From contig JAFZWY010000039.1 in the NCBI GenBank assembly GCA_017617125.1, positions 13,145 to 77,144 on the forward strand: a stretch of DNA of 64,000 nucleotides, in the 5' to 3' direction. Under the pieces are notes generated by a model, which worked only from the letters and a program-made list of their open reading frames with translations, had not been told where the DNA came from and ran no database searches. Of this stretch, positions 1,343-40,705 are shown piece by piece. The position numbers and the translations under genes were made by a program. Numbering within the stretch: position 1 is the stretch's first letter; every line of letters begins with the position of its first letter. The stretch is from Bacteroidales bacterium. GTDB taxonomy: Bacteria > Bacteroidota > Bacteroidia > Bacteroidales > ML635J-15.

Positions 1343-2569
1343 ATGAACTCATTGGAACGCGAATTTCACACACAAAACCGTCGAAAATTGCTCGACCCAA
1401 TCGGCAACGGCGATACCGTGATATTATTTTCGGCAAATCCGCAGTCACGCAACGCAAACCAGTTTTTCCGCTACCGCCAAAACTCCGACATATTGTATTA
1501 CAGCGGAATACAGCAGGAAGAAACAATACTTCTGCTACATAAGAAAAATACGAACGAAGCCGAAGAATATGCCTTCATTATCGAACCAACCGAACACATA
1601 AACGTGTGGACAGGCATAAAACTTACCAAAGCCGAAGTCGGCGACATTTCGGGCATAGCCAATGTGGAATACCTCGACCGCTTCGACTGCATTGCCGATG
1701 AAATCATAAATTCGAGCAAAGGCAGAGTATATCTATCCTTCGGCAACAACATACGCAAGGCCGAATACATAAATTTCCGTCAGGAAGCATGGAAGAATGC
1801 TCACAGAGATCTGGAATTCAACGACATCGACCTCATAACCACAACTTTGCGCCTACAAAAATCAGACTATGAAATTGGTTGCATACGCGAAGCCATAAGA
1901 ATAACAAAAAATGCTTTTGCCGAAGTCGCAAAGATTATACGTCCAGGCATTCGTGAATATGAAATAGAAGCCGAATTCTACCAACAAATCCGTGGTTGCG
2001 GATGCGAAGGCTTTGCATATCAGCCTGTGATTTCGTCGGGAAGCAACAACTGCATTCTGCAAAGCATAAACAATCAAGGTATCTGTCACGATGGCGACCT
2101 GCTGATTATGGACGTTGGTGCCGAGTACAAGGGTTATGCCGCCGACATCACTCGCACAATTCCTGTAAACGGCAAATTTTCGCCACGACAACAACAGGTT
2201 TACGACGAAATAATATCGATTCAGCGTCAAATAAAGCAATATTACGTCCCTAGCTCATCTATTGACCGCATACATACCGAATTTGAAAATTTGATGCTCG
2301 AAGCACTGCAAAGGCTTAATTTAGTCACGAAAGACGAAATCGCACATCAGGAATCGATACACGCAACAGTAAAGCGATATTCGCCGCACCTTTGCTCGCA
2401 TTTCATCGGACTCGATGTTCACGATGTGGGCAACCGGCGCACAATATTGCAAAACGGCATGGTGATGAGTTGCGAACCAGCCATATATATTCCCGAGGAA
2501 GGTTTCGGAATAAGAATGGAAACCGATATGCTCGTAGGCGAAAAGCCAATGGATTTGGGAGAAGAATAA
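1343..2569 (+). CDS. Xaa-Pro aminopeptidase, M24B family
   Basis: M24 pita-bread metal-site context (DVGAEYKGYAADITRT, HFIGLDVHD, EPAIYIPEEGFGIRMETD). The ATG at 1343, 1 nt after the ispG stop, is preferred over the track start at 1310. Confidence 0.85.
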   Translation: MNSLEREFHTQNRRKLLDPIGNGDTVILFSANPQSRNANQFFRYRQNSDILYYSGIQQEETILLLHKKNTNEAEEYAFIIEPTEHINVWTGIKLTKAEVGDISGIANVEYLDRFDCIADEIINSSKGRVYLSFGNNIRKAEYINFRQEAWKNAHRDLEFNDIDLITTTLRLQKSDYEIGCIREAIRITKNAFAEVAKIIRPGIREYEIEAEFYQQIRGCGCEGFAYQPVISSGSNNCILQSINNQGICHDGDLLIMDVGAEYKGYAADITRTIPVNGKFSPRQQQVYDEIISIQRQIKQYYVPSSSIDRIHTEFENLMLEALQRLNLVTKDEIAHQESIHATVKRYSPHLCSHFIGLDVHDVGNRRTILQNGMVMSCEPAIYIPEEGFGIRMETDMLVGEKPMDLGEE

Positions 2570-2636
2570 AAAAACTATTGCATAAAACACTCCAAGCAAC
2601 TATCTTTGTCCGACTGAATTTTAAAACAACGCAACA

Positions 2637-3704
2637 ATGATAGTACTGACACTCGATGCTGGCGGAAGCAAATTCGTATTTTCGGCAATAAAAGACGGAA
2701 AATTCATAACCGAACCGAATAAAATCCCATCGAACGGACACGACCTGGACAAATGTCTGCTAGGAATGATTGACGGTTTCAAACAACAGCAGAAAGCCGT
2801 CGGCGAACCGATAGACGCCATCAGTTTCGCATTCCCCGGCCCGGCCAACTACCGAGAAGGCATCATAGGCAACACCGAGAACCTCAAGGGATTCCGCGGC
2901 GGTGTTCCACTGAAGGCCATGCTCGAAAATATCTTCAAGGTGCCAGTATTCATCAACAACGATGGCGACCTCTATACCTACGGAGAATCGCTTGCTGGCT
3001 CACTCCCGCTCATCAATGCACAGCTTCAAAAGGCAGGAAACAAGATGCAATACCGCAATGTCGTCGGTCTGACCATCGGCTCAGGCTTCGGCGGAGGTTT
3101 TGTACACGACAAGGTGCTGATTACCGGCGACAACGTCACCGCCTGCGAAATATGGAAAATGTCGAACCGTCTCGACCCCGACCGCAACTGCGAAGAACTA
3201 ATCGCAATACGTTCGCTACGGAGATTCTACTCCGAATTTGCAAAGATTCCGTTCGACGACACTCCTATGCCACGCGAAATATACCTCATCGGTATGGGTA
3301 AGGAAAAGGGCAACAAGACTGCTGCCAAAAAAGCCTTCTTCCGTATGGGCGAATGCCTTGGCGATGCAGTAGCAAACATGATAACCCTGTTTGATGGCAT
3401 TGTAGTAATCGGTGGCGGTGTTTCTGGGGCTCGCGAACTCATAATCCCTGGTGTAGAAAAGGAACTGCAACACAAATTTGCAACACTCTCGCGCGTTACA
3501 CAGAACGTTTATTGCCTCAACAAGCCCGAACAGCTAGCCGAATTTGTGAAGCCAGAAAGCAAGACACTGAAAGTGCCGCTGTCGGACAAGACCGTGGAAT
3601 ACTCGTATATGCCCAAGTGCGGTTATGTTTTCTCATCATTCGATACCAGCATGATGATAAACATCGGTGCCTACCACTTTGCAAAGGAAATGCTGAAAAA
3701 ATAG
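2637..3704 (+). CDS. ROK-family sugar kinase (glucokinase-like)
   Basis: N-terminal LTLDAGGSKF ATPase phosphate-1 motif. The glycine-rich GLTIGSGFGGGFV segment resembles the ROK signature. Confidence 0.65.
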   Translation: MIVLTLDAGGSKFVFSAIKDGKFITEPNKIPSNGHDLDKCLLGMIDGFKQQQKAVGEPIDAISFAFPGPANYREGIIGNTENLKGFRGGVPLKAMLENIFKVPVFINNDGDLYTYGESLAGSLPLINAQLQKAGNKMQYRNVVGLTIGSGFGGGFVHDKVLITGDNVTACEIWKMSNRLDPDRNCEELIAIRSLRRFYSEFAKIPFDDTPMPREIYLIGMGKEKGNKTAAKKAFFRMGECLGDAVANMITLFDGIVVIGGGVSGARELIIPGVEKELQHKFATLSRVTQNVYCLNKPEQLAEFVKPESKTLKVPLSDKTVEYSYMPKCGYVFSSFDTSMMINIGAYHFAKEMLKK

Positions 3705-3706
3705 GA

Positions 3707-4327
3707 TTATACTATACAATTGGCCAGATATTCTCTGCTTTCGGGACCGACATTGAAAATCAAGTCGAGAATACTAAGATTTGGCACAAATTCGAATCTG
3801 TCGCAGAAAACCTGAGTATATGGCTTTGCTGCAAATGTCTCATCCAGACGATTTTTTGAAGGCTTTGGACTTATGCTTTCGCGGAAATCGGCATAATCGG
3901 CTGAATCGAAAATATAATCAGCTGTGTACGAATAATCCGCATCTATCTTAAGCACCGAGAATAGCGCTTGTAGTACATTTTCATTCAAGTCGATAAGAAA
4001 ATTCTCCTTTTTCTCGAAAAAGCGTTCAAATTTGTAAAAATAGTAATCGTAAAAGGCAGAATTCTTGTATGCCGACTTCAAGGCTGTAAGATGGTTGCGC
4101 TGCCACATTTCCGAATAGTCGATGCGAATGTCCTTGGTCAAGGTGTGATAATTCTTCTGCACCGGCACCGACAATGGCAAAACGCCGTTTGCGCTCAATA
4201 TGTTACAACGATTACGATAAGTCTGCTTGGGATAGGTCTCGTACTTCTCGATCACAACATTCCCAGCAAGAAACTTGCTCATGTACTGTACATTGGGAAA
4301 GAAAGCCGTTGAAAGTAATGCAGTCAT
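3707..4327 (-). CDS. WbqC-family protein
   Basis: N-terminus is FFPNVQYMSKF...YPKQTYRNRCNI, as in WbqC-like proteins. It sits in the conserved position downstream of lepB in Bacteroidota. Confidence 0.7.
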   Translation of the reverse strand: MTALLSTAFFPNVQYMSKFLAGNVVIEKYETYPKQTYRNRCNILSANGVLPLSVPVQKNYHTLTKDIRIDYSEMWQRNHLTALKSAYKNSAFYDYYFYKFERFFEKKENFLIDLNENVLQALFSVLKIDADYSYTADYIFDSADYADFRESISPKPSKNRLDETFAAKPYTQVFCDRFEFVPNLSILDLIFNVGPESREYLANCIV

Positions 4328-5176
4328 CTACCGTATAACCTTTCCTATGATATATTCTGCAGGAATCGGACCGTACATACGCGAATCGCGCTTGTAGGTA
4401 CGGTCGTCGTTGAGAATAAAATAGTAATTCTTCTGTGGGACAAACTCGCTGACTTCCTGCTGGTTTATGCGCACATGGTATGTATCCGACTGAAAATCTT
4501 TGCCTTCAAAAAGAGTTATTATGTTTTTGTATATCGGCGCAATGCGTGGATGGAGGTTCAAAGTATCGCCTGATTTGGGCAGATACATTGGGCCGAAATT
4601 GTCCATATTCCAAGCGAAAAAGTCACTCGACGGAAAAACATCCACATCCTTCCAGTCGTTGCGAGCTATTATCTTACGACACGATGAGAACTGCTTCTCC
4701 GAAGACTTGATCTTTTCAAACTCTGTTTCTGTGCATACGAATTCACAAGCTTTACCGTCGTTGAGCACATCACCAATCCTGACATCGTACTTTGAAAGTA
4801 TAGCTAGGAAATCGACCTTCACGGAATCAACCGATGCGCGATATCTGCTATAAGTTGCGTAATCTTCCTTAACTTCCTCGTTGTTCCTATACAAAACGCC
4901 ATCGTCAATGAGAACAATGTCGCCAGGGACACCAACAACCCTCGAAACATATACATCGCGAGACGAAAGCTTGGTGTCGAATTCAAGCGGATACCTGTAT
5001 GCTACCACATCACCAATTTCTATAGAACTCGTCTTGCGGACAAATACGCTCGATTCGCTTCCATCGGCACACTTCACGCTATAGAAGCCAAACATCAGCC
5101 AGTAGACAACGCCTCCGGCAATTATGGCGACAATAATTATTGCTATTAATATCCTTTTAATCTTCATTGTGTACAA
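4328..5176 (-). CDS. lepB: signal peptidase I (S26), second divergent copy
   Basis: N-terminal TM helix and C-terminal S26 box ([25 protein letters not shown]). Overlaps the upstream lepB by 20 nt. Confidence 0.7.
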
Positions 5177-6884
5177 TCTTTCCTATCCTACTCCAACGGA
5201 TTCCTCCGTATTCCTTATCAACCGACAACCAGATGAGCCAAGCCTTGCCGACAATATGGTCTTCGGGGACAAAACCCCAGTAGCGGGAGTCGGCTGAATT
5301 GTGGCGATTATCACCCATCATCCAGTAGTAGTTCATCTTAAAGGTATATTCGGTTGCGGGCTGACCGTTTATATATGCCTTGCCGTCCTTCACTTCGAGA
5401 GTATTTCCCTCATAGTAACCAATTACGCGACCATAAAGGATGAGGTTTTCCTCAGTAAGCAGAATCTTGTCGCCAGCCTTCGGTATGTACAGAGGCCCGA
5501 ACCAGTCGACATTCCACGGGAACTTCTCGCTGTGCGGGAAAATGCGGAAACTATCGTCGCCAGTAAATCCCTTTGCAACGGTATTCTTCTCAATCGACTC
5601 CACAAACGACATTGTCTTGAACTTCTCGAAATTCTCGGCTGTCAACGGTACAATCTTGTAGTTTATACTGTCGGTATGCAAATCGTAGATATCGGAACCG
5701 TTTATTTCGTTCTTGCGCAATACCTTTTCAGGAATATTGGCCGTATTGATAGTAAGACGATAGTTGAACTGCTTGGTAGGGATTTCCTTCTGTGGCTTTC
5801 CGTTTACAAACACTTCACCGTCGCGAACTTCCAAGGTATCGCCAGCGATAGCCACACAACGCTTGATGTAGTTTTCGCGCTTATCGACTGGACGCACGGT
5901 AATATCGTACATGTCCCACACAATCTGACGGGCAAGACGGGAATACTTGTCCATGTCGGAAATTGCAGGATTCTCCTTTGCAAGCTTAGTCTCATTCTCG
6001 CGCAACTTAGCCGAAGCTTCGTTTACAAACGAATTTGTGTGCGCAATATTCGTTGCCGGATTGAACAGCGAATATGCAAGATTCATGTAATAGTCGTTTG
6101 TTTTCTGCGATACATTTCCGACCAGGATTTTCTTGTTCATCATTGTCGAATACTGCAAATCGAAATCGGCCATACGGTACTGCATTATGCGCACGATGTC
6201 GTAGTAGTCCTGTGCAGGAATCTGCAGGACTACAGTATCGCCGGTCGGATAGTTGAACACAACCATATCGTCGCGCTTGATGTCGCCCCAGCCTGTCATG
6301 CGACGGTATTCGTTCTGTATCCATGTCACATACGAAGGTGTACTCTGCGTAAACGGCAAAGTGTGGTGTACAAACGGGAACGAAATCGGAGTCATCGGCA
6401 CGCGCGGTCCGTAAGCCGTCTTGCTGACGAAGAGGTAGTCGCCTACCTGCAAGGTCTTTTCCATCGACGAGGTCGGAATTGTAAACGCCTCGAAGAAGAA
6501 AATCCTGATGAACGAAGCTGCAATCACAGCGAATATCAATGCGTCAACCCATTCCAGTGTCTTACGCTTTGCCTTCGAGCAGTTTTCGGGATTCTTCGGT
6601 TTCCAGAATGCCCAACGTACGAATTTTGTGATGTAAATATCAATTATCAGCAGTTCGCCGAGCAAAAACCAATAATTTCCAAGCCAAATCACCCAGCCTA
6701 TGTAGAAGATTGTCCACGCTGCGAACCATATCCAGTTGCGACGCGAAGGCATCTCGATGAACTTTTCACATTTGCCGAGTTTTAAAGTACAACCCTTTTT
6801 CGGCTCATTGTTTGGCTTGTTGACAGCCACATTTTCAGTATTTTTTTTCTTTCCGAACATATTCTTATAATCCAAGTAAATCAT
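5157..6884 (-). CDS. lepB: signal peptidase I (S26), long Bacteroidota type
   Basis: Catalytic Ser region ([20 protein letters not shown]) and [25 protein letters not shown] box. An alternative start at 6860 would remove the overlap with dapB. Confidence 0.85.
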
Positions 6885-28839: not shown

Positions 28840-30831
28840 TCATTTCGTATAAAATCCCTCCACCGACTGGAATGCACCATACAGAGAACTCTGATTATTG
28901 AGTTTTTTTACCGATTCGGTCATCTTGGAGACAAACGCCTCGAGTTTTACCATATACTCCTGCTCGCCGATAGTACCGCTTGCCACCATCGACAAACCTT
29001 TCTCCCAGCTTGCAGTAAGTTCGGCATTAAGCATCTGGCGAATTGAAGCGGCAACAACCTCATAAACCATTTCGCCCAACTTTGCCGGTGTAATAGTCTG
29101 TGTCTTCTTGTTAAGGTTCAGATACTCCAGTTTTACCAGCTTGCTCAAGATTTCGGCACGCGTGGCACTGGTTCCGATACCACTACCCTTTATCTGCTCG
29201 CGCAACTCCTCGTCCTCAATCAACTGACCTGCATTTTCCATTGCAAGAATCAGAGAACCGGAATTGTAGCGCTTGGGCGGCGTGGTTTCACCCTCCTTAA
29301 TTTCGTAGCCTGCAACAGGCAAGGTTGAGCCCTTGCGCAACTTGTTTACAAATTCGAAACTTCCAGAATCAACCACCTCTTCCTTGTCCTGCTGCTTGTC
29401 GTCATCAGCCTTTGGCAATCCTGCAACCACAAGATAGCCAGCATCCTCGAGCACCTTGAAATTGGCGAACAGGTGCTCCGCACCGACCTGCATATCGATT
29501 GAAACCTTGCGGTACTCGGCTGGTGGATAGAATATTGCAAGAAAACGGCGAGCAATACGGTCGTAGACCTTTCGGGCTATGTCGGAACACGATGCCAAGT
29601 TTGACACGCCCTGTCCCGTCGGAATTATTGCATAGTGGTCGGTTATCTGCTTGTCGTCGACATAACGGCTCTTGCCTATTTTTTCATACAAGCCAAAGCC
29701 CTTTATCTGCTTAGTATACTCAAGATATTCGGACTGTGTAGCCAATCCGTGCAGATTCTTTGTAATCTCCTTTGCCACAGCCGACGAAAGCACACGCGCA
29801 TCTGTACGTGGATATGTAACAAGCTTCTTTTCGTACAATTCCTGAACGATATTTAAGGTTTCGTCGGGGCTAATCTTGAACAACTTGGAGCATTCGTTCT
29901 GCAATTCGGCAAGGTTGAATAGCAAAGGTGGATTTTTCTTCTCCTTTTTCTTCTCAATTCCAGCAATTTGTGCAGTATCGCCTTCGGCTTGCATAATACC
30001 AATGCAAGCTTCAGCATCCTCGCGCTTGCGGAAACCGTTTTCCTTGTACAAAAGCGGTGAGTTAAAGTATTTTGAGCCTTCCACAGCACGCCATTCCCCT
30101 TGGAACGAGTCGTTTCCCTGACCAAAGGTTCCTATTATTCTATAAAAAGGTGTTTTTACAAACGAGCGTATCTCACGTTCGCGTCTAACAATCATGCCCA
30201 GCACACAAGTCATGACACGGCCTACGGCTACAACACAATTTTTGTCAAGTTTCAGGAAGTTTTTTACATGGTAGCCGTACTTCAAAGTCAGTATTCGGCT
30301 GAAATTTATACCCATCAGATAATCTTCCTTGGCACGCAGATAAGCCGAATCGGAAAGCGCATCGTAAGATGACAAGGGCTTTGCCTCGCGTATTCCGCGC
30401 AAAATTTCCTCCTCGGTCTGCGAATCAATCCACACACGACGACGTTGTCTGTTTTCGGGCACTCCTGCCATCCTATCAACAAGACGGTAAATGTATTCAC
30501 CCTCGCGTCCCGAGTCGGTGCAGACATATATACAGTCGACATCGGCACGAGTCAAAAGAGACTTCACAATATCGAACTGCTTTTTCACCCCAGGAATCAC
30601 CTCGTACAGATAGTCCTTGGGCAGGAAAGGCAATGTTTCGATACGCCACTGCTTCATTATCGGGTCGTAAGCATCGGGGTAACTCATCGAAACGAGGTGA
30701 CCTACGCACCAAGTCACGATGCTGGCATTGCCTTCGAGATAGCCGTCACCTCGCGACATAGACTCCTTGAGAGCCTTCGCAAACTCACGTGCAACACTCG
30801 GTTTTTCGGCTATAAAAAGATTTTTACCCAT
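28840..30831 (-). CDS. topB: DNA topoisomerase III
   Basis: Toprim start LFIAEKPSVAREFA. YPRTD active-site Tyr region (LVTYPRTDARVLS). Type IA size of 663 aa without a zinc-ribbon tail. Confidence 0.9.
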   Translation of the reverse strand: MGKNLFIAEKPSVAREFAKALKESMSRGDGYLEGNASIVTWCVGHLVSMSYPDAYDPIMKQWRIETLPFLPKDYLYEVIPGVKKQFDIVKSLLTRADVDCIYVCTDSGREGEYIYRLVDRMAGVPENRQRRRVWIDSQTEEEILRGIREAKPLSSYDALSDSAYLRAKEDYLMGINFSRILTLKYGYHVKNFLKLDKNCVVAVGRVMTCVLGMIVRREREIRSFVKTPFYRIIGTFGQGNDSFQGEWRAVEGSKYFNSPLLYKENGFRKREDAEACIGIMQAEGDTAQIAGIEKKKEKKNPPLLFNLAELQNECSKLFKISPDETLNIVQELYEKKLVTYPRTDARVLSSAVAKEITKNLHGLATQSEYLEYTKQIKGFGLYEKIGKSRYVDDKQITDHYAIIPTGQGVSNLASCSDIARKVYDRIARRFLAIFYPPAEYRKVSIDMQVGAEHLFANFKVLEDAGYLVVAGLPKADDDKQQDKEEVVDSGSFEFVNKLRKGSTLPVAGYEIKEGETTPPKRYNSGSLILAMENAGQLIEDEELREQIKGSGIGTSATRAEILSKLVKLEYLNLNKKTQTITPAKLGEMVYEVVAASIRQMLNAELTASWEKGLSMVASGTIGEQEYMVKLEAFVSKMTESVKKLNNQSSLYGAFQSVEGFYTK

Positions 30832-31404: not shown

Positions 31405-31478
31405 GGCGAGGTAGCTCAGCTGGTTAGAGCGCATGATTCATAATCATGAGGTCGGCGGTTCAATCCCGCCTCTCGCTA
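31405..31478 (+). tRNA. tRNA-Met (anticodon CAT); a lysidine-modified tRNA-Ile2 cannot be excluded
   Basis: Acceptor GGCGAGG/TCTCGCT (two G-U pairs), D arm GCTC-AGCTGGTTA-GAGC, anticodon loop TTCATAA, T arm GGCGG-TTCAATC-CCGCC. A TACTTTTG box lies upstream. Confidence 0.85.
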
Positions 31479-31486
31479 CAAAAGTT

Positions 31487-35214: not shown

Positions 35215-35607
35215 ATGGATATTTCAGGAAAATTGATAAAGGTATTGGAGCCAATAACAGGCAATGGCGCGAACGGACAATGGAAAAAGCAGTCGTTTGT
35301 AATAGAATACGCCAACGGGCAGTTCCCGAAGAAAGCATGCTTCCAGGTATGGGGCGACAAGGTTGACCTATCCTCGCTTGTAGTAGGCGAAGAAATACAT
35401 GTTTTCTTTGAGCCGGAAAGCCGCGAGTACAACAACAACTGGTACACCGACCTCCGTGCATGGAAGGTAGAAGCAGCTCAAAACCAAAACGGAGCATTCG
35501 CACCGCAGATGCCAACACCTCCGCCACCAACAGGCGCTCCCATGCCAACCGAAGTTCCAAACTTCGTGGATGCTGGCAGCAATGCCGATGACGATTTACC
35601 ATTCTAA
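35215..35607 (+). CDS. DUF3127-type protein with an SSB-like disordered linker and acidic DDDLPF C-terminal tip
   Basis: The N-terminal ~85 aa beta-rich domain (MDISGKLIKVLEP..G.W.KQ.FV) is recognised as DUF3127. It is followed by a P/Q/G-rich linker and the terminal hexapeptide DDDLPF. Confidence 0.7.
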   Translation: MDISGKLIKVLEPITGNGANGQWKKQSFVIEYANGQFPKKACFQVWGDKVDLSSLVVGEEIHVFFEPESREYNNNWYTDLRAWKVEAAQNQNGAFAPQMPTPPPPTGAPMPTEVPNFVDAGSNADDDLPF

Positions 35608-35645: not shown

Positions 35646-38312
35646 TTACAATGCCTCCATTTTCTCCATAAACGCCACCCCTACCCTTAACTCATCGTAC
35701 GAAAACTTTCCATCGGCATCGGCAAAAAGTTGCGACATGCTTCCGTATTCGCCATGCGATTCCAGATAATCCATAACCTCTGCAAACCTTGCCTTGCTAC
35801 CGATAAGCGCCTCTGGTTGAATCTCACCGGTGACAATATACCTCGTCAAATGCGAAAAAACTGTTGACACTGCAAGTGAACGCTCCTTTGCAATTTCTTC
35901 CACCGACATTCCCTGCTTGAACATTTCGAGCGACTTGCGGTACGAATCACCTTTTGCCGGCTTTTCCTTCTTTTCCTTTGCCTTTTTCTTTTTTTCCGAC
36001 TTAGCATCAGCTACTTCTTCTAGTTCCGGCAGAGCATTTTCGTCCACAATGCCATTTGCCTTGCAATAGCCGTTAATAATATTCAGAATCTCGTTGCCAT
36101 AGGCGGCAACTTTTTTTGCGCCAATACCTTTTATCTTGCTAAGCGACTTGGCATTACGCGGCAATTTTTCCACCACCTCGACAAGCGACTTCTGAGGCAA
36201 CACATAATACACCGGCATATCGAACTCGTCGGCAATCGACTTGCGCCAAGCATTAAGGGCTGTAAATAATTCTTTGTTTGTACCTGGAACCGAATATGTT
36301 TTCTGCGACTTACGGCTGAAGGTCGGCTGGAACTTGTCTTCGGTGTCGGAGATAATACGCAAATACATTTCGGTAGAAAAGCCCTCGATGGTCTTTTCCA
36401 AAACATTGCGCTTGCGGTCGTATTCAAGTTCCAATGCTTCGAGAGCCGATTTCATTTCATCGTCTATCTCCTTGTTATCGGACTCGAACAGCATCTGCGA
36501 AAACGGCTCGCCAATAACCTCACCCAACTTACCAAAGAAATATTCCGACGCCTTTGAAATCCTCTGCTGCAAAAACTCATCATCTTTCAACTGCACATTA
36601 GGCGAAGCGGAAAATATTTTCCACAACTGTATGACAAATTTCTTGTTCACACCGAAAATCAACGAATCGAACTGCTGCACGACATCAAGAAGCCGCTGCG
36701 AATATTCAGGGTTGAACTTGTTGAAATTTGCCATATACACCTTGCGCACATCCGACAACTGCCTTTGCAACAAGTTGAAATCAAATATTTTAAGCAAAAT
36801 ATCACGCTGAAACGAAACGACATACGAATTGAGACGAACTTCGTCGGGCTGATTCTGTCGGGCATTGTCGCAAAAAGTTATCACTTCGGTGTCGGACTTT
36901 ATCATCTGCGGAGAAATGGCAGTTTTCAAAGTCAAACCTTCCAGCGAACGACAACGGCTTAGCGCAACATACACCTGCCCGAACGCAAATGCAGCATGAA
37001 CGTCAATAATAGCCTTGTCGAATGTAAGTCCTTGACTTTTATGCACTGTTATCGCCCAAGCAAGCCGCAACGGATACTGTACAAACTCGCCAATAACATT
37101 CTGCTCAATCTCATTGGTTTCGCTGTTTACCGAATACTGAACATTCTCCCATAGTTCCTGCTTGACTTCAATCGGAGACAAGTCGCCATTGCAAAGCACC
37201 ATGATTTTGGAGCCGTCAATCTCGGTTATACGGCCAATTTTTCCATTGTAAAACAGCTTCGCAGGCGAAGAGTCGTTCCTGATAAACATAACCTGCGCGC
37301 CAACTTTCAGCGTGAGAGTTTCGTCGGTAGGATACATATATGGAGGAAAATTGTCCTTTATGTCCGCCGTGAACTGATATTCCTCGCCTTCAAGGGCATC
37401 TAATTTTGATGTATTAATAGAATTTGCATCGTTATTATGAGTTGTAAGGCGGATGCTGTCTTCGTCATCGGCATCAGAAACACGGCTGTTCAGCACTGCA
37501 AGCGACTCTCGAGTGAGGGTATTTGTACGTATTTCATTGAGAATTGACACAAAAACTTCGTCTCGCTGCCTGAAAATATGCGTAAGTTCCACTGTAACAT
37601 AATCCACTTTCTTCAAGGCGTTGCTATCGAAGAAATATGGAGAGCGGTAAAATTTGCTGATAATCCGCCATTCGTCCTCCTTAACAACAGGCGTAAGCTG
37701 GTACAAATCGCCAATCATAAGCAACTGCACACCACCAAACGGCAGCGACGAGCGACGGTAATGACGCAGAACGCTGTCAACGGCGTCAAGCAAATCGGAA
37801 CGCACCATGCTAATCTCGTCAATTACAAGCAAATCGAGCGAGCGCAAAAGCTTTATCTTGTTTCCGCTAACGCGATATTGTTCGCGAATAGGGTTTCCTT
37901 CGCTATCCTTGCTGACAAATGCCAGGTCGGCCCCTTCGGGGATAAAAGGCGTAAACGGAAGCTGAAACATAGAATGGATTGTAACGCCGCCAGCATTGAG
38001 AGCTGCGACACCAGTTGGAGCCACTACAACCATGCGTTTGCGAGTGATGCTCGGCAAACTTTTCAGAAAAGTAGTCTTGCCAGTTCCTGCCTTGCCTGTA
38101 AGAAACACGGACTTCCCGGTAAACTTTATCAGATCGCGGGCTAACTTTATGTTTTTGTCAATGGCTTCCAATTTATTACAATCGTTGTTGCTTGCAAAAG
38201 TAACACTTAATGACGAATTGCAGATGTGCAAATTGGAGTCGTGGCTAATTATTTCTTCGGTCATTTTTGAAATCATTTCTTTTTTTGTATCCGAAAAATC
38301 GGCAGCCGCCAT
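35646..38312 (-). CDS. PIF1/RecD-like SF1 helicase with C-terminal HRDC and HTH domains
   Basis: Walker A GKAGTGKTT, motif Ia VVAPTGVAA, Walker B LVIDEISMV, TVHKSQGLTF. HRDC-like segment (LFTALNAWRKSIADEFDMPVYYVL...IKGIGAKK) and terminal HTH (MSVEEIAKERSLAVSTVFSHL). Confidence 0.85.
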   Translation of the reverse strand: MAAADFSDTKKEMISKMTEEIISHDSNLHICNSSLSVTFASNNDCNKLEAIDKNIKLARDLIKFTGKSVFLTGKAGTGKTTFLKSLPSITRKRMVVVAPTGVAALNAGGVTIHSMFQLPFTPFIPEGADLAFVSKDSEGNPIREQYRVSGNKIKLLRSLDLLVIDEISMVRSDLLDAVDSVLRHYRRSSLPFGGVQLLMIGDLYQLTPVVKEDEWRIISKFYRSPYFFDSNALKKVDYVTVELTHIFRQRDEVFVSILNEIRTNTLTRESLAVLNSRVSDADDEDSIRLTTHNNDANSINTSKLDALEGEEYQFTADIKDNFPPYMYPTDETLTLKVGAQVMFIRNDSSPAKLFYNGKIGRITEIDGSKIMVLCNGDLSPIEVKQELWENVQYSVNSETNEIEQNVIGEFVQYPLRLAWAITVHKSQGLTFDKAIIDVHAAFAFGQVYVALSRCRSLEGLTLKTAISPQMIKSDTEVITFCDNARQNQPDEVRLNSYVVSFQRDILLKIFDFNLLQRQLSDVRKVYMANFNKFNPEYSQRLLDVVQQFDSLIFGVNKKFVIQLWKIFSASPNVQLKDDEFLQQRISKASEYFFGKLGEVIGEPFSQMLFESDNKEIDDEMKSALEALELEYDRKRNVLEKTIEGFSTEMYLRIISDTEDKFQPTFSRKSQKTYSVPGTNKELFTALNAWRKSIADEFDMPVYYVLPQKSLVEVVEKLPRNAKSLSKIKGIGAKKVAAYGNEILNIINGYCKANGIVDENALPELEEVADAKSEKKKKAKEKKEKPAKGDSYRKSLEMFKQGMSVEEIAKERSLAVSTVFSHLTRYIVTGEIQPEALIGSKARFAEVMDYLESHGEYGSMSQLFADADGKFSYDELRVGVAFMEKMEAL

Positions 38313-38335
38313 CTGGCGACCACCGAAATTTGGAA

Positions 38336-38671
38336 TTACGCCCTATCTGGCTTACTAAACAATATCGTATCGGCAACAACCTCGTATGTACACTGTTCGT
38401 TTCCATTCTTGTCTGTGTAGCGGTTCTGCTTCAGGCAACCATCAACAACGACCTCATAACCTTTCACGATTTTTGACTTTACCATATCGGCGAGATTGCC
38501 CCACGCTATGACATTGTGCCACTGCGTTTCCTTAACAACACGGTCGCTTTTCCTGAAGAAGTCGGAAGTCGCTACCGACAATTTTGCCATTTTCGTTCCA
38601 CTTGGAAATTCATAATACTTAGGGTCTCCACCTAGATTTCCAATCAATTGTACTCGATTCTTTAAATTCAT
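38336..38671 (-). CDS. ssb: single-stranded DNA-binding protein, OB-fold only, no acidic tail (SSB1)
   Basis: MNLKNRVQLIGNLGGDP...TQWHNVIAWG...KG..V.V.G.L....Y.D. Ends at residue 111 with no linker or tip. The ATG at 38671 is used; the track start is an upstream GTG. Confidence 0.85.
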   Translation of the reverse strand: MNLKNRVQLIGNLGGDPKYYEFPSGTKMAKLSVATSDFFRKSDRVVKETQWHNVIAWGNLADMVKSKIVKGYEVVVDGCLKQNRYTDKNGNEQCTYEVVADTILFSKPDRA

Positions 38672-38683
38672 AATCTTTAAATT

Positions 38684-38714
38684 TTTGTCAGTTAATAATT
38701 TATTACTACTTTTG
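38684..38714 (+). promoter_or_regulatory. consensus Bacteroidota promoter (-33 TTTG, 19-nt spacer, -7 TACTTTTG) oriented against the flanking genes
   Basis: TTTG at 38684-38687 and TACTTTTG at 38707-38714. The block is ~93% identical to 39620-39650. Confidence 0.5.
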
Positions 38715-38718
38715 CAGT

Positions 38719-38837
38719 GTGTTTCGCTTTGGCACCAAGATCGCGCCACTCGTTTCGGGAAGCCGGCATTTATCTCGTAATGATGCGTGGAAGCCTCCTC
38801 TGCTGGGGGACCAGACAGGCTGAGTGAAACATTTTTT
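38719..38837 (+). ncRNA. candidate small RNA A (antisense-oriented, end-to-end closed stem plus U-tract)
   Basis: The 5' TGTTTC (38720-38725) pairs with the 3' GAAACA (38826-38831), followed by T6. There is an internal CTGG-GGGA-CCAG hairpin. It shares the CGCYTTGGCA and ACAGGCTGRG strings with candidate B. Confidence 0.3.
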
Positions 38838-39252
38838 ATTTATACCTATTGGAATAAAACGATTTGAAAATATTTCCCTTCTTGACGACCTTTACAGCAA
38901 TCGTAAATTTTATTTTACCACGAAACTTTTCCATACTATAAATAATATGATTCTCATCAGATTCCATACTACCATTGCGTACTACATCCATCAGATTTAA
39001 AATTTCCAAAGCGGTAACAGCCCCACGATTTGTCTTGTAATGTTTGAGCAAAACATGTTGTGTGCCTTCATTTTCATCATCAGATGGAAACATTATTGTA
39101 ACAGGACCGCCATTACCATCCGTAGTGCAGATACGTTTCAGTTTCCCTTTGGTCCGACAAAAAGTTTCGAAAACTCTATTCTGCTCCTCGGTTAGTTCCC
39201 TGTTGCCAACCTCAGCACGGAACTGCGCTATCCTATCGTCGATGAGTGCCAT
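38836..39252 (-). CDS. hypothetical basic 138-aa protein X1 (paralog of 39716-40132)
   Basis: N-terminus MALIDDRIAQFR.EVG..ELTEEQ, central H/K-x-V-L-x-KH motif, C-terminal FKSFYS. Starts 13 nt after the SSB2 stop. Confidence 0.7.
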   Translation of the reverse strand: MALIDDRIAQFRAEVGNRELTEEQNRVFETFCRTKGKLKRICTTDGNGGPVTIMFPSDDENEGTQHVLLKHYKTNRGAVTALEILNLMDVVRNGSMESDENHIIYSMEKFRGKIKFTIAVKVVKKGNIFKSFYSNRYK

Positions 39253-39265
39253 ATTGCAATGGATA

Positions 39266-39607
39266 CTATTCCGCCTTTTCCTTTAATGACAATTCGCAAA
39301 TAACCTCATTCGCAACAACTTCCGTTATATACCGCTTTACATTGTTCGCATCCTCGTAACTGCGCGAAGTCAACCTGCCAACGATGGTAACATGCGTTCC
39401 CTTTGTGCATCGCTCCGACACCTTGTCGGCATTCGCACCCCATGCAACGATGTTGTGCCATTCAGTCCGACTAGCCGGCTTGCCATTCTCATAATAACTC
39501 TCGGAAGTTGCCAACGAAAACCTTGCAACCTTTCCACCTCTTGTCTCGTTTACCTTCGGATCAGCACCCATGTTGCCGACCAACATTACAAAATTTCTAA
39601 TTTCCAT
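39266..39607 (-). CDS. ssb: single-stranded DNA-binding protein, OB-fold only, no acidic tail (SSB2)
   Basis: VGNMGADP...ARFSLATSE...TEWHNIVAWG...KGTHVTIVGRL..RSYED....RYITEVVA. 113 aa. Confidence 0.85.
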   Translation of the reverse strand: MEIRNFVMLVGNMGADPKVNETRGGKVARFSLATSESYYENGKPASRTEWHNIVAWGANADKVSERCTKGTHVTIVGRLTSRSYEDANNVKRYITEVVANEVICELSLKEKAE

Positions 39608-39619
39608 GTCTTTTAATTT

Positions 39620-39650
39620 TTTGTCAGTTTATAATTTATTACTACTTTTG
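39620..39650 (+). promoter_or_regulatory. consensus Bacteroidota promoter (-33 TTTG, 19-nt spacer, -7 TACTTTTG) oriented against the flanking genes
   Basis: TTTG at 39620-39623 and TACTTTTG at 39643-39650. Confidence 0.5.
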
Positions 39651-39653
39651 CAT

Positions 39654-39716
39654 TGTCTTTTCGCCTTGGCAAAATTGTTTTCGAAACAATAAACAGGCTG
39701 GGGAAAAGACTTTTTT
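39654..39716 (+). ncRNA. candidate small RNA B (antisense-oriented, closed stem plus U-tract)
   Basis: GTCTTTTC (39655-39662) pairs with GAAAAGAC (39703-39710), followed by T6. There is an inner 7-bp hairpin ATTGTTT-TCG-AAACAAT (39674-39690). The T-run abuts the X2 stop codon. Confidence 0.35.
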
Positions 39717-40132
39717 CATTTATAGCCAATTGTTGAATAAAAGGACTTGAATACCGCATCTTTTCCGTTTGAAAAAACTTTCAATACCGTAAAATATAAT
39801 GCACCATCGCATGTCCATGCCTTTTCGTATATTATATTCCCCATACTCATATACTTGCGGCCAGTTCTAACAGTATCAAACATATCCAGTATTTGGACTG
39901 CTGTAACTGTTCCATCAGGTGTACAATAATGTTTCGTAAGCACTTTTTTTACTTCAGCAGAAGAATCCATCGACACCCGAAGGGAAACACCTTCTACATC
40001 AACTATATGAATTCTAACAAGCGAACCATTCTTTTTTGTGAATGCATTGAAAATCTTTCTCTGCTCCTCAGTTAGTTCCATGTCGCCAACTTCCGTACGG
40101 AACTGCGCTATCCTATCGTCGATGAGTGCCAT
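39716..40132 (-). CDS. hypothetical basic 138-aa protein X2 (paralog of 38836-39252)
   Basis: Same length and motifs as X1. Its first 36 nt are identical to X1. Starts 17 nt after the SSB3 stop. Confidence 0.7.
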   Translation of the reverse strand: MALIDDRIAQFRTEVGDMELTEEQRKIFNAFTKKNGSLVRIHIVDVEGVSLRVSMDSSAEVKKVLTKHYCTPDGTVTAVQILDMFDTVRTGRKYMSMGNIIYEKAWTCDGALYFTVLKVFSNGKDAVFKSFYSTIGYK

Positions 40133-40149
40133 AATTCAAACACCAGAAT

Positions 40150-40515
40150 TTATGCAATATTCTTTTCTACCTTTGCATCCGCACGTTTCAACCTTCTTAT
40201 CATTATGCTGTCGGCAACAATCTCCGAAACTTTGCGCTCACGGCCTTCGCGATCGGTAAACTTGGTGCTTACCACGCTACCTATAACTATTATTTCACTA
40301 CCCGTGGAAACTTCGCGATCCTGCAAAACTTCTGCAATACGATTCCATGCCGTAACACTATGCCACTGCGTGTCACGCACATATTTACCTTCTTTTTTAT
40401 AAACATCAGTAGTTGCGAGCGAGAAGCGTGCGAGTTTCCTACCATTTCCAAAATCCCTGATCTGCGGTTCCGAACCCAGATTTCCAATCAGCTGTACGCG
40501 ATTTCTTAAATTCAT
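40150..40515 (-). CDS. ssb: single-stranded DNA-binding protein, OB-fold only, no acidic tail (SSB3)
   Basis: MNLRNRVQLIGNLGSEP...ARFSLATTD...TQWHSVTAWN. 121 aa with a basic C-terminus. Confidence 0.85.
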   Translation of the reverse strand: MNLRNRVQLIGNLGSEPQIRDFGNGRKLARFSLATTDVYKKEGKYVRDTQWHSVTAWNRIAEVLQDREVSTGSEIIVIGSVVSTKFTDREGRERKVSEIVADSIMIRRLKRADAKVEKNIA

Positions 40516-40705
40516 AATCGTAAATTTTTAAACGTTAAACATTTTGTTCGGACTTCGTTGTGAAATCCGATGCAAAAGTCGGGCGATTCGGAAATACGAG
40601 TCGGTTTTTAAACGCTTACTTTCGTTTATTAGTCGTTTCTTGTCGTTTATACACGGATATGTAATTATGTTTCAATACGATAAAAAAAATTTCATTTTTC
40701 ATAAT

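Follow-up and report, generated by a model that had tools for sequence, protein, structure and literature searches.

The subject of this analysis is a six-gene locus in a stretch of 64,000 nucleotides (nt) from a Bacteroidales bacterium (GenBank assembly GCA_017617125.1, contig JAFZWY010000039.1, positions 13,145 to 77,144 of the forward strand). This whole stretch is called the window below, and its numbering is used throughout. Between positions 35646 and 40515, three genes for single-stranded DNA-binding proteins (SSB1 to SSB3) alternate with two paralogous genes, X1 and X2, and are followed by a helicase gene. We found that X has a companion other than the neighbouring SSB: the X gene and a candidate small structured RNA, encoded downstream on the opposite strand and directed at the X stop codon, form an invariant unit. 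We are highly confident that X is a domain of the polyvalent-protein type and that a conserved structured element with its own promoter lies convergent to it. Beyond this we lean, slightly, towards reading the locus as a set of mobile modules of X and RNA, similar to toxin/RNA-antitoxin or abortive-infection systems, which were captured in an older SSB tandem.

A sigma-70 promoter scan is uninformative for this phylum, and the window was searched with the Bacteroidetes sigma-ABfr consensus, TTTG-N17-23-TAnnTTTG (PMC7366714). There were 12 matches against 3.45 expected, several of them correctly placed before tRNAs and genes. Two matches on the plus strand each lie between the stop codon of an X gene and the start of the next SSB gene, and both are aimed back at X. 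The promoter at 38684-38714, TTTG-N19-TACTTTTG, agrees exactly with the consensus and precedes candidate small RNA 1 (class A, about 118 nt, 38719-38837, plus strand), convergent with X1 (38836-39252, minus strand). The promoter at 39620-39650, also TTTG-N19-TACTTTTG, precedes candidate small RNA 2 (class C, about 62 nt, 39655-39716, plus strand), convergent with X2 (39716-40132, minus strand). Small RNA 1 has the closing stem GUGUUUCGCUU/GAGUGAAACA(U), the junctions UUGGCACCA and CAGGCUG, and a U-run touching the X1 stop codon. In small RNA 2 the stem is GUCUUUUC/GAAAAGAC, the junctions are UUGGCAAAA and CAGGCUG, and the U-run lies at the X2 stop codon. From its predicted start to the X stop codon, the RNA always consists of a 5′ arm, UUGGCACCA or a close variant, a hairpin insert of variable size, C(A/C)GGCUG, a complementary 3′ arm and the U-run, so that a long stem closes a predicted transcript of 60-125 nt. 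Inverted repeats I3/I4, considered as invertase sites, were rejected as such; they are oppositely oriented -7 boxes.

This arrangement is not peculiar to the window. Across all loci, about 36 of 41 X genes have an antisense promoter 65-125 nt downstream of their stop codon, against a background of about 1.5% of genes. Prophages and other settings outside the arrays have it too, with an unrelated promoter sequence, and the same promoter-RNA architecture recurs in sequence-unrelated surroundings, namely prophage L027, L032, L043-49 and L016. The exact position of the RNA varies. It overlaps a short C-terminal extension of X in some homologs and the 3′ end of the X open reading frame (ORF) in the H-type and L016 copies; in the L016-type genes it sits inside a read-through extension of the ORF.

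Folding of single sequences recovered the closing stem, with z from -2 to -4 in 7 of 9 RNAs. For small RNA 2 the RNAfold z value was -3.6, and none of 200 shuffled sequences folded as well. The motifs came out of register when all RNA classes were aligned globally with MAFFT, and we used instead a compact-class seed with covariance-model iteration. Among six compact RNAs of distant homologs, 98.1% of the alignment cells in the stem are paired and 9 of 18 pairs show compensatory changes; this was matched by 0 of 500 shuffles, and slid partners paired in 35-59%. With 18 sequences the values are 95.6% and 13 of 18 pairs. With 27 sequences from nine classes they are 97.3% and 12 of 14 pairs (85 compensatory cells), again with 0 of 500 shuffles matching and 26-54% in the slid controls. 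About 14% of the paired cells in the last alignment are G.U. The structure belongs to the strand antisense to X, because these cells would be A.C mismatches on the other strand. Covariation thus gives the RNA structure strong support.

Two covariance models extended this result. Model R1, built from the six distant-homolog RNAs only, finds array classes B and D, the L032 RNA, L050 and an orphan copy in L017. Model R2 was built from 18 sequences, none of class A, C or E, and it matches small RNA 1 (38714-38841, plus strand, 30.7 bits, E = 2.1e-4) and small RNA 2 (39650-39719, plus strand, 32.5 bits, E = 7.6e-5) and also detects the prophage copy. When both strands of 390,277 bp were searched with R2 at E<=1, 42 of 42 matches, many of them related by descent, lay antisense-downstream of an X gene or at the orphan site. 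The orphan (L017, 10889-10980, minus strand, 91 bits with R2) lies between two SSB genes, has no X beside it and looks like a module that lost its protein gene. Neither spacer of the window had a match in Rfam 15 at E<=10; the X-linked RNA is a new family absent from Rfam.

X itself is a new, unmodelled protein domain family. X1 and X2 are both 138 amino acids (aa) long and share 45% identity (E = 5e-33), in line with the paralogy proposed by the sequence-only reading. Their description there as unassignable holds for the models in Pfam, NCBIfam, PHROGs and PADLOC, none of which they match, and fails for profile searches. A word-indexed search gave 12 close clusters only; an exhaustive profile search gave 330 representatives at E<=1e-3. 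Among the top 161 listed, 59 are carriers longer than 1000 aa in which X is an internal domain, the longest having 5718 aa, and the giant carriers sampled also contain MuF_C, ART-PolyVal, InPase, PBECR2 and LPD23. Because giant carriers with these domains are the signature of the polyvalent proteins that phages and conjugative elements encode (Iyer et al. 2017, PMC5512222), X is a domain of this type. The X segment of these carriers is not covered by any Pfam model. As a side observation, Pfam DUF3519 matches one X-family segment (5.2e-5); in protein P0064 (residues 160-297) this match overlaps the C-terminal part of the X domain, and DUF3519 may model part of a related domain.

The AlphaFold2 model of X1 (pLDDT 92.8) begins with two helices and a hairpin; a helix that ends in K70-H71 comes next, and two further short helices lead to a meander of four strands. 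Its core, helix 63-70 and strands 95-98, 102-111, 114-123 and 128-137, has the single helix followed by a meander of 4-5 strands that is expected of PBECR domains, with extra N-terminal elements. H71 and Y105 are invariant across the family, and G63, G94, F132 and Y133 are conserved in more than 90% of members. The last strand reads FY[S/T]N[R/K], and K70 precedes H71. PBECR domains are defined by a core-helix His and an S/T in the final strand (PMC5512222), and K70-H71 and S/T134 of X agree with the published PBECR and colicin-like active site. X2 has the K-H71, Y105 and FYS features and is without the G63/H66 segment.

Comparisons with PBECR domains are consistent in direction and statistically weak, and the label PBECR-like was chosen for X because of this. 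PBECR1 is matched by 6 of 24 X-family members, with a best E of 3.9e-4 and all below gathering, and X1 and X2 themselves have no match. With hhalign, X against a PBECR1 protein and against the PBECR1 profile gave E values of 0.012 and 0.004 at probabilities of only 3.5-8%, with GxxH[IV]xxKH aligned. The top PDB sequence match of X is the CdiA toxin 7m5f_C, which has the same motif, at a marginal E of 0.5. A Foldseek search of the X1 model against PDB, the kind of check that the sequence-only reading had proposed, gave nothing convincing (poor NTF2-like matches, TM about 0.3), and against BFVD it gave weak LPD3/PolyVal matches. On these grounds X is probably a PBECR-like RNase and not a proven member of PBECR, and its predicted activity is probably that of a metal-independent endoRNase.

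More distant solo X genes, 33-47% identical, lie in other surroundings, and none of them has an SSB neighbour. In L027-29, X follows the lysis and tail genes of a prophage, at whose end it adjoins the integrase; in L045 and L049 it adjoins integrase-like genes, and in L032, L033 and L043 it adjoins solo LPD1 and PBECR1 genes. In all three independent contexts examined (L033 920-1381, L051 3001-3450 and L054 3001-3405), a bona fide solo PBECR1 gene likewise has a convergent -7 box, 81-89 nt downstream of its stop codon. The PBECR1 RNAs of L033 and L051 have a common inner hairpin with compensatory changes and form a family distinct from the X-associated RNA. These RNAs appear to overlap the end of the ORF. 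The convergent promoter and RNA at solo PBECR1 genes therefore tie X functionally to PBECR1 and suggest a general theme.

In the window the array genes are all on the minus strand, and their lengths and gaps are exactly those given by the sequence-only reading. SSB3 (40150-40515, 121 aa, PF00436 at 3.3e-23) is followed after 17 nt by X2, X2 after 108 nt by SSB2 (39266-39607, 113 aa, 3.2e-28), SSB2 after 13 nt by X1, X1 after 164 nt by SSB1 (38336-38671, 111 aa, 7.3e-27), and SSB1 after 23 nt by the helicase (35646-38312, 888 aa). The three SSBs match PF00436 with 82-98 bits (cut-off 26), over the whole oligonucleotide-binding (OB) fold, and TIGR00621 with 88-98 bits (cut-off 54). In Escherichia coli SSB, W40, W54, F60 and W88 are the aromatics that stack on single-stranded DNA (ssDNA) and H55 is the tetramer-interface His; the equivalents of W40, W54, H55, F60 and W88 in SSB1-3 are F/Y, W, H, W and Y/F. 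As had been recognized from the sequence, the proteins are tail-less: they stop 5-20 residues past the OB fold and do not have the flexible linker and acidic tip (D-D-D-I/L-P-F) of a canonical replicative SSB. They are old paralogs, because their mutual identity is only 32-43%. All array genes are under purifying selection. X1 is a working gene, because the omega value of its orthologs is about 0.08, and selection on the SSBs is likewise strong.

It is instructive to follow this array across sister genomes. X-bearing loci were found only in uncultured rumen Bacteroidales. The order is fixed, with SSB3 first and SSB1 last in every locus, and the middle varies among genomes whose flanking genes are 81-100% identical. 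The window has SSB3-X2-SSB2-X1-SSB1-helicase, L012 has SSB3-LPD3-SSB2-X1-SSB1 and L013 has SSB3-SSB2-X1-SSB1, while L014 carries five SSBs with three X genes and L036 five SSBs with four. The L001 type, SSB3-LPD3-X-SSB2′-SSB1, adjoins the gene of a CCA-adding enzyme and is without the helicase. In L020, the order is SSB3-SSB2-SSB1-helicase-DUF3127-aminotransferase, with gaps of 12-35 nt, no cargo at all and a helicase 69% identical to that of the window. An array thus holds 0-4 X-RNA units and 3-5 SSBs, with SSB2 in 1-3 copies. SSB2 copies are 94-96% identical whether an X variant, LPD3 or nothing comes next. Because the trio is cargo-free in L020 and SSB2 stays constant whatever the cargo, the three SSBs are the older part of the array, into which X and LPD3 were inserted later.

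The cargo other than X is LPD3, itself a polyvalent-protein domain (27.5 bits against a gathering score of 27). Both kinds of cargo decay. A 109-aa gene in L004 (4109-4438) is LPD3 with an internal deletion, having both termini in common with the 247-aa form, and in L009 (9095-9513) X2 is broken into pseudogene fragments of 59 and 49 aa. The orphan RNA and the X pseudogenes suggest the decay pattern typical of toxin-antitoxin (TA) loci. The unit duplicated in sister genomes is SSB2 + X + RNA. Within it, the repeat with the RNA promoter and the 5′ end of the next SSB spans about 107 nt, and the first 91 nt of X1 (39169-39259) and X2 (40049-40139) are 86% identical, against 45% for the proteins overall. 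The latter suggests, from sequence comparison, gene conversion or recombination at cassette borders, or else a functional 5′ element. Conserved borders around variable bodies may favour unequal crossing-over and cassette exchange. Array genes have synonymous divergence (dS) of 0.47-0.80 and flanking genes of 0.26-1.3; the array lies inside the range of its flanks, and the overlap bears on any separate horizontal transfer of the array.

The helicase is a frequent neighbour of the array and not its constant partner. It matches PIF1 (1.7e-26), HRDC (1.2e-22) and HTH_40 (9.9e-19), so that its annotation as a helicase with HRDC and helix-turn-helix domains was correct. At least 8000 homologs have this architecture, which occurs throughout Bacteroidia and is mostly not accompanied by SSBs, and orthologs at 45-50% identity have no SSBs alongside. 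A hairpin of 12 bp (8 GC) with TTTTT at 38299-38326 (minus strand), across the SSB1 stop codon and the annotated helicase ATG, is a possible terminator or attenuator. It argues for the array as a transcription unit of its own, and the idea that the array feeds into the helicase was not borne out: some arrays stand beside the CCA-adding enzyme gene, and the helicase mostly occurs without SSBs. The annotated helicase start may be misplaced, as orthologs have 859-880 aa and often a 47-aa ORF in between. The helicase is also a divergence outlier when the window is compared with L012, L004 and L014 (dS about 2.0, 81-82% aa identity; neighbours 88-100%). A recurrent upstream 687-aa gene of sister loci, which the window does not contain, was rejected as a part of the system; its lipoprotein signal peptide and HELGH motif mark it as a lipoprotein metalloprotease.

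A DUF3127 OB-fold gene (35215-35607, plus strand; PF11325 at 8.9e-29; phrog_4932, ssDNA binding protein) lies between the aminotransferase and the helicase, convergent with the latter. The C-terminus of its protein, ...NADDDLPF, is the canonical SSB tip that the array SSBs are without. The DUF3127-helicase pair is kept in L004, L012, L016, L019 and L020 and is not found with distant helicase orthologs. This gene, the plus-strand promoter and RNA in each spacer downstream of X, and the SSB1-helicase hairpin had all been missed by the sequence-only reading. The other flanking genes encode a Na/H exchanger, an ABC transporter, a Topo III-like topoisomerase, a TPR protein, an aminotransferase, DUF1015, BaxI, a ComF-like PRTase and a sigma-54 activator. 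Family searches of the window proteins found no integrase, relaxase or type IV secretion system (T4SS), and the flanks are of chromosomal type, as originally described. The Topo III-like gene (Topoisom_bac and Toprim; 28840-30831, minus strand) and a tRNA-Met gene (31405-31479, plus strand) lie 5-9 kb from the array. Topo III-like and tRNA genes are frequent companions of Bacteroides integrative elements; no integrase was seen near this pair in the window. Two sister loci have further side features. Compared with the window, L012 (7369-8454) is longer by about 850 nt between DUF1015 and the promoter region of SSB3; of the three small ORFs in this extra DNA, one has a predicted membrane segment and is holin-like. 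The insertion is a further sign of an insertion hotspot. On the left side of the L001 array (2493-6066) lie genes for a SIR2_2-domain protein (1.5e-10) and a BspA-type leucine-rich repeat protein with a Por secretion tail, and the neighbourhood may be a defence or variable island.

How could such a locus work? In the model that we propose, the older layer would be a chromosomal SSB3-SSB2-SSB1 tandem upstream of a housekeeping-type PIF1/HRDC helicase in one rumen Bacteroidales lineage, and the younger layer would be two-part modules inserted after SSB3 and after SSB2. Each module would consist of an X gene and a convergent, self-terminating structured small RNA with a strong promoter of its own. 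X would have no promoter and would depend on read-through from the upstream gene. No recognisable promoter was found for X; the sole sense candidate is a near-consensus -7 box, GACTTTTG (40573-40580, minus strand), about 57 nt 5′ of SSB3, a putative promoter of the sense unit which recurs with the same sequence in L012. The need of a promoter-less X for read-through from a steadily expressed gene may be the reason for its location behind SSB genes. The RNA, if abundantly expressed as its promoter predicts, would restrain a putatively toxic X RNase, most likely through protein binding, and might in addition pair with the 3′ part of the X transcript, to which it is complementary. We favour a type III-like mode, in which a protein, presumably X, recognises the RNA, because the junctions are conserved and the stems covary although the X proteins are 33-45% identical. 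The modules would ride on prophages, and in the SSB hotspot they would accumulate, duplicate with SSB2 and decay. We compare this with TA and abortive-infection systems because of the promoter asymmetry, the RNase-like X, the positions at prophage edges, the flux in copy number, the orphan RNA and the X pseudogenes.

A rather unlikely alternative, although the one with most in its favour, is that X is an invader-side effector, for example an RNase acting on host or defence RNAs, and that the RNA is only a cis-antisense regulator or terminator, the modules being domesticated or hitch-hiking prophage cargo. The RNA would then set the level of X through RNase III-type cleavage of a duplex with the X 3′ untranslated region, or through transcriptional interference. 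X is indeed a polyvalent-protein domain, and Iyer et al. read PBECRs as effectors of early invasion (PMC5512222). Moreover, the RNA is by construction fully complementary to read-through transcripts of X, and it overlaps the X ORF in the H-type and L016 copies; the PBECR1 RNAs apparently overlap the end of the PBECR1 ORF. Pure cis-antisense action, however, has no need for UUGGCACCA and GGCUG junctions that stay conserved next to such divergent X proteins while the stems covary, and the L017 RNA kept without X is easier to understand as the remnant of an antitoxin.

The sequence-only reading had placed the SSBs at the centre, and it is improbable that they belong there. It offered SSB-X as a functional cassette in which a tail-less OB fold senses or sequesters ssDNA, or is the antidote, and X is the effector, together with the downstream helicase. 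The SSB-to-X spacing of 13-17 nt and the co-orientation, the co-duplication of SSB2 with X and the purifying selection on all genes suit this proposal, and the cassette does exist as a unit of variable copy number. As a functional pair it fails, since SSB2 does not change with what lies behind it, the trio is cargo-free in L020, X with its RNA occurs without any SSB in at least six other contexts, L001-type arrays have no helicase, and neither SSB nor X matches PADLOC. Cognate toxin-immunity pairing of SSB and X was rejected, as there is no SSB-X covariation. What survives of the defence or anti-defence idea is the origin of X among conflict-system domains and its toxin-like RNase features, without SSB as partner, and the suggested toxin-like pair comes closest to the evidence once the RNA takes the place of the SSB. 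Very improbable, in our view, is a chromosomally fixed remnant of a conjugative leading region or another mobile element carrying ssb and anti-defence cargo. Tail-less ssb genes with polyvalent-type domains (LPD3, PBECR-like) are typical of such regions, the array lies at synteny breakpoints with three different left or right neighbours, and the Topo III-like gene and tRNA-Met are near. Yet the window and the 20-kb flanks of its relatives contain no relaxase, T4SS, integrase or bounding repeats, the array dS is within the range of the flanks, and the trio order and the synteny with helicase, DUF3127 and aminotransferase are kept down to 69% helicase identity; the cassette does not lie inside a conjugative transposon. 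We consider least probable of all an accessory replication/repair operon of the PIF1/HRDC helicase with X as a DNA-transaction factor, also among the original suggestions. The helicase adjoins the array in most loci and an SSB-like DUF3127 protein with a DDDLPF tip is next door, but X has its relatives in conflict proteins, as modules, and in prophage accessory regions, close relatives differ in their number of X genes (0 to 4), neither SSB nor X adjoins most helicase orthologs, and a terminator-like hairpin stands ahead of the helicase.

Several observations weigh against the interpretation of the locus as captured toxin/RNA-antitoxin modules. The PBECR homology of X is statistically weak on every measure given above (hhalign, Pfam for X1/X2 and Foldseek). 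The relatives of X inside polyvalent proteins are regarded as invader-side effectors and not as addiction toxins (PMC5512222). A closing stem around 40-100 nt is unusual for an intrinsic terminator, and the module fits neither classical type III systems, with their upstream tandem repeats, nor type I systems, with their small hydrophobic peptides. The RNA has no excess complementarity to the translation-initiation region of X, and type I-style pairing with the X ribosome-binding region is unsupported (z from -1.0 to +1.2). Three protein-based scans of IMG/VR viral contigs and one scan for the DNA/RNA pattern gave no copies. Finally, the larger RNA alignments were fitted to the model, and among the 42 RNA copies, many of them related by descent, about nine sequence classes are independent; the independent evidence for the RNA consists of these nine classes, the model-free folds and the detection of one class by models of others.

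The X genes, at first unassignable, are now one half of a two-component system that can be tested, and the covariation-supported RNA family that makes up the other half, with no counterpart in Rfam, has exact coordinates. Should the RNA prove to be the antitoxin or regulator of a BECR-fold RNase, this would be a new architecture of RNA-based toxin control, and the little-understood solo PBECR/LPD genes, which Bacteroidales phages of gut and rumen carry in abundance, would have their first functional handle. The tail-less SSB tandem is a chromosomal hotspot where modules are gained, duplicated and lost between close relatives, and it carries a warning that tight gene spacing does not equal functional pairing. 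A wider hypothesis, which we offer tentatively and hold to be doubtful, is that the solo BECR/PBECR-type RNase genes of Bacteroidales phages are an unrecognised class of RNA-controlled toxins or abortive-infection genes, each neutralised by a convergent stem-closed RNA. Here UUGGCACCA, which resembles a tRNA acceptor/CCA end, would perhaps be a pseudo-substrate; the class would extend to PBECR1 genes with an RNA family of their own, and the SSB tandem would be a hotspot of capture and amplification.

The locus can be compared with several known systems. With the ssb clusters in leading regions of plasmids and integrative and conjugative elements it has in common tail-less SSB genes beside conflict-type cargo; it differs in the absence of transfer genes, its conserved chromosomal position and its three anciently diverged SSBs in fixed order. 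The CdiA-CT and colicin-like BECR tRNases (7m5f chain C) resemble X in the G-x-x-H-[IV]-x-x-x-H motif of the core helix, the beta-meander and the Lys-His pattern. In contrast, those toxins have protein immunity partners and are delivered from cell to cell, and their similarity to X is marginal (E of 0.5) and not recovered by Foldseek.

Type I TA systems (txpA/RatA, bsrG/SR4 and the enzyme-type SymE/SymR) have the same convergent layout, a strong separate promoter for the RNA and complementarity to the 3′ part of the toxin transcript, and the RNA of X, abutting or overlapping the 3′ end of its gene, is a cis-antisense RNA in this sense. Unlike their small membrane peptides, X is a soluble alpha/beta protein of 138 aa that looks like an enzyme, and its RNA has conserved unpaired motifs and no extra complementarity to the ribosome-binding region. 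Type III TA systems (ToxIN, CptIN and TenpIN) and AbiF/RCd22, a prophage RNase-like toxin neutralised by a structured non-coding RNA (bioRxiv 10.1101/2025.04.15.648962), are similar in that a predicted endoRNase-type protein has a dedicated structured RNA with conserved motifs, in the prophage or mobile setting and in the orphan RNAs left by decay. The conserved junctions suggest that the RNA may bind X directly, the hallmark of type III. The X RNA differs as a single, downstream, convergent unit from upstream same-strand tandem repeats, and the predicted fold of X is BECR-like and not ToxN/Kid-like or HEPN/Abi_2.

The closest relatives are the solo PBECR and LPD genes described by Iyer et al. 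(2017). X is distinguished from them by lying outside all Pfam PBECR/LPD models, by its chromosomal setting interleaved with SSBs (SSB has 0 occurrences in PMC5512222) and by its pairing with a structured RNA, which is undescribed for these domains; our literature search found no description of an RNA partner of PBECR-type proteins. The two also have points in common. X occurs inside proteins of 2,000-5,700 aa together with MuF_C, ART-PolyVal, InPase, PBECR2 and LPD23, as a solo gene it lies in prophage accessory regions beside solo LPD1, LPD3 and PBECR1 genes, and it has the same pattern of a His in the helix and S/T in the last strand.

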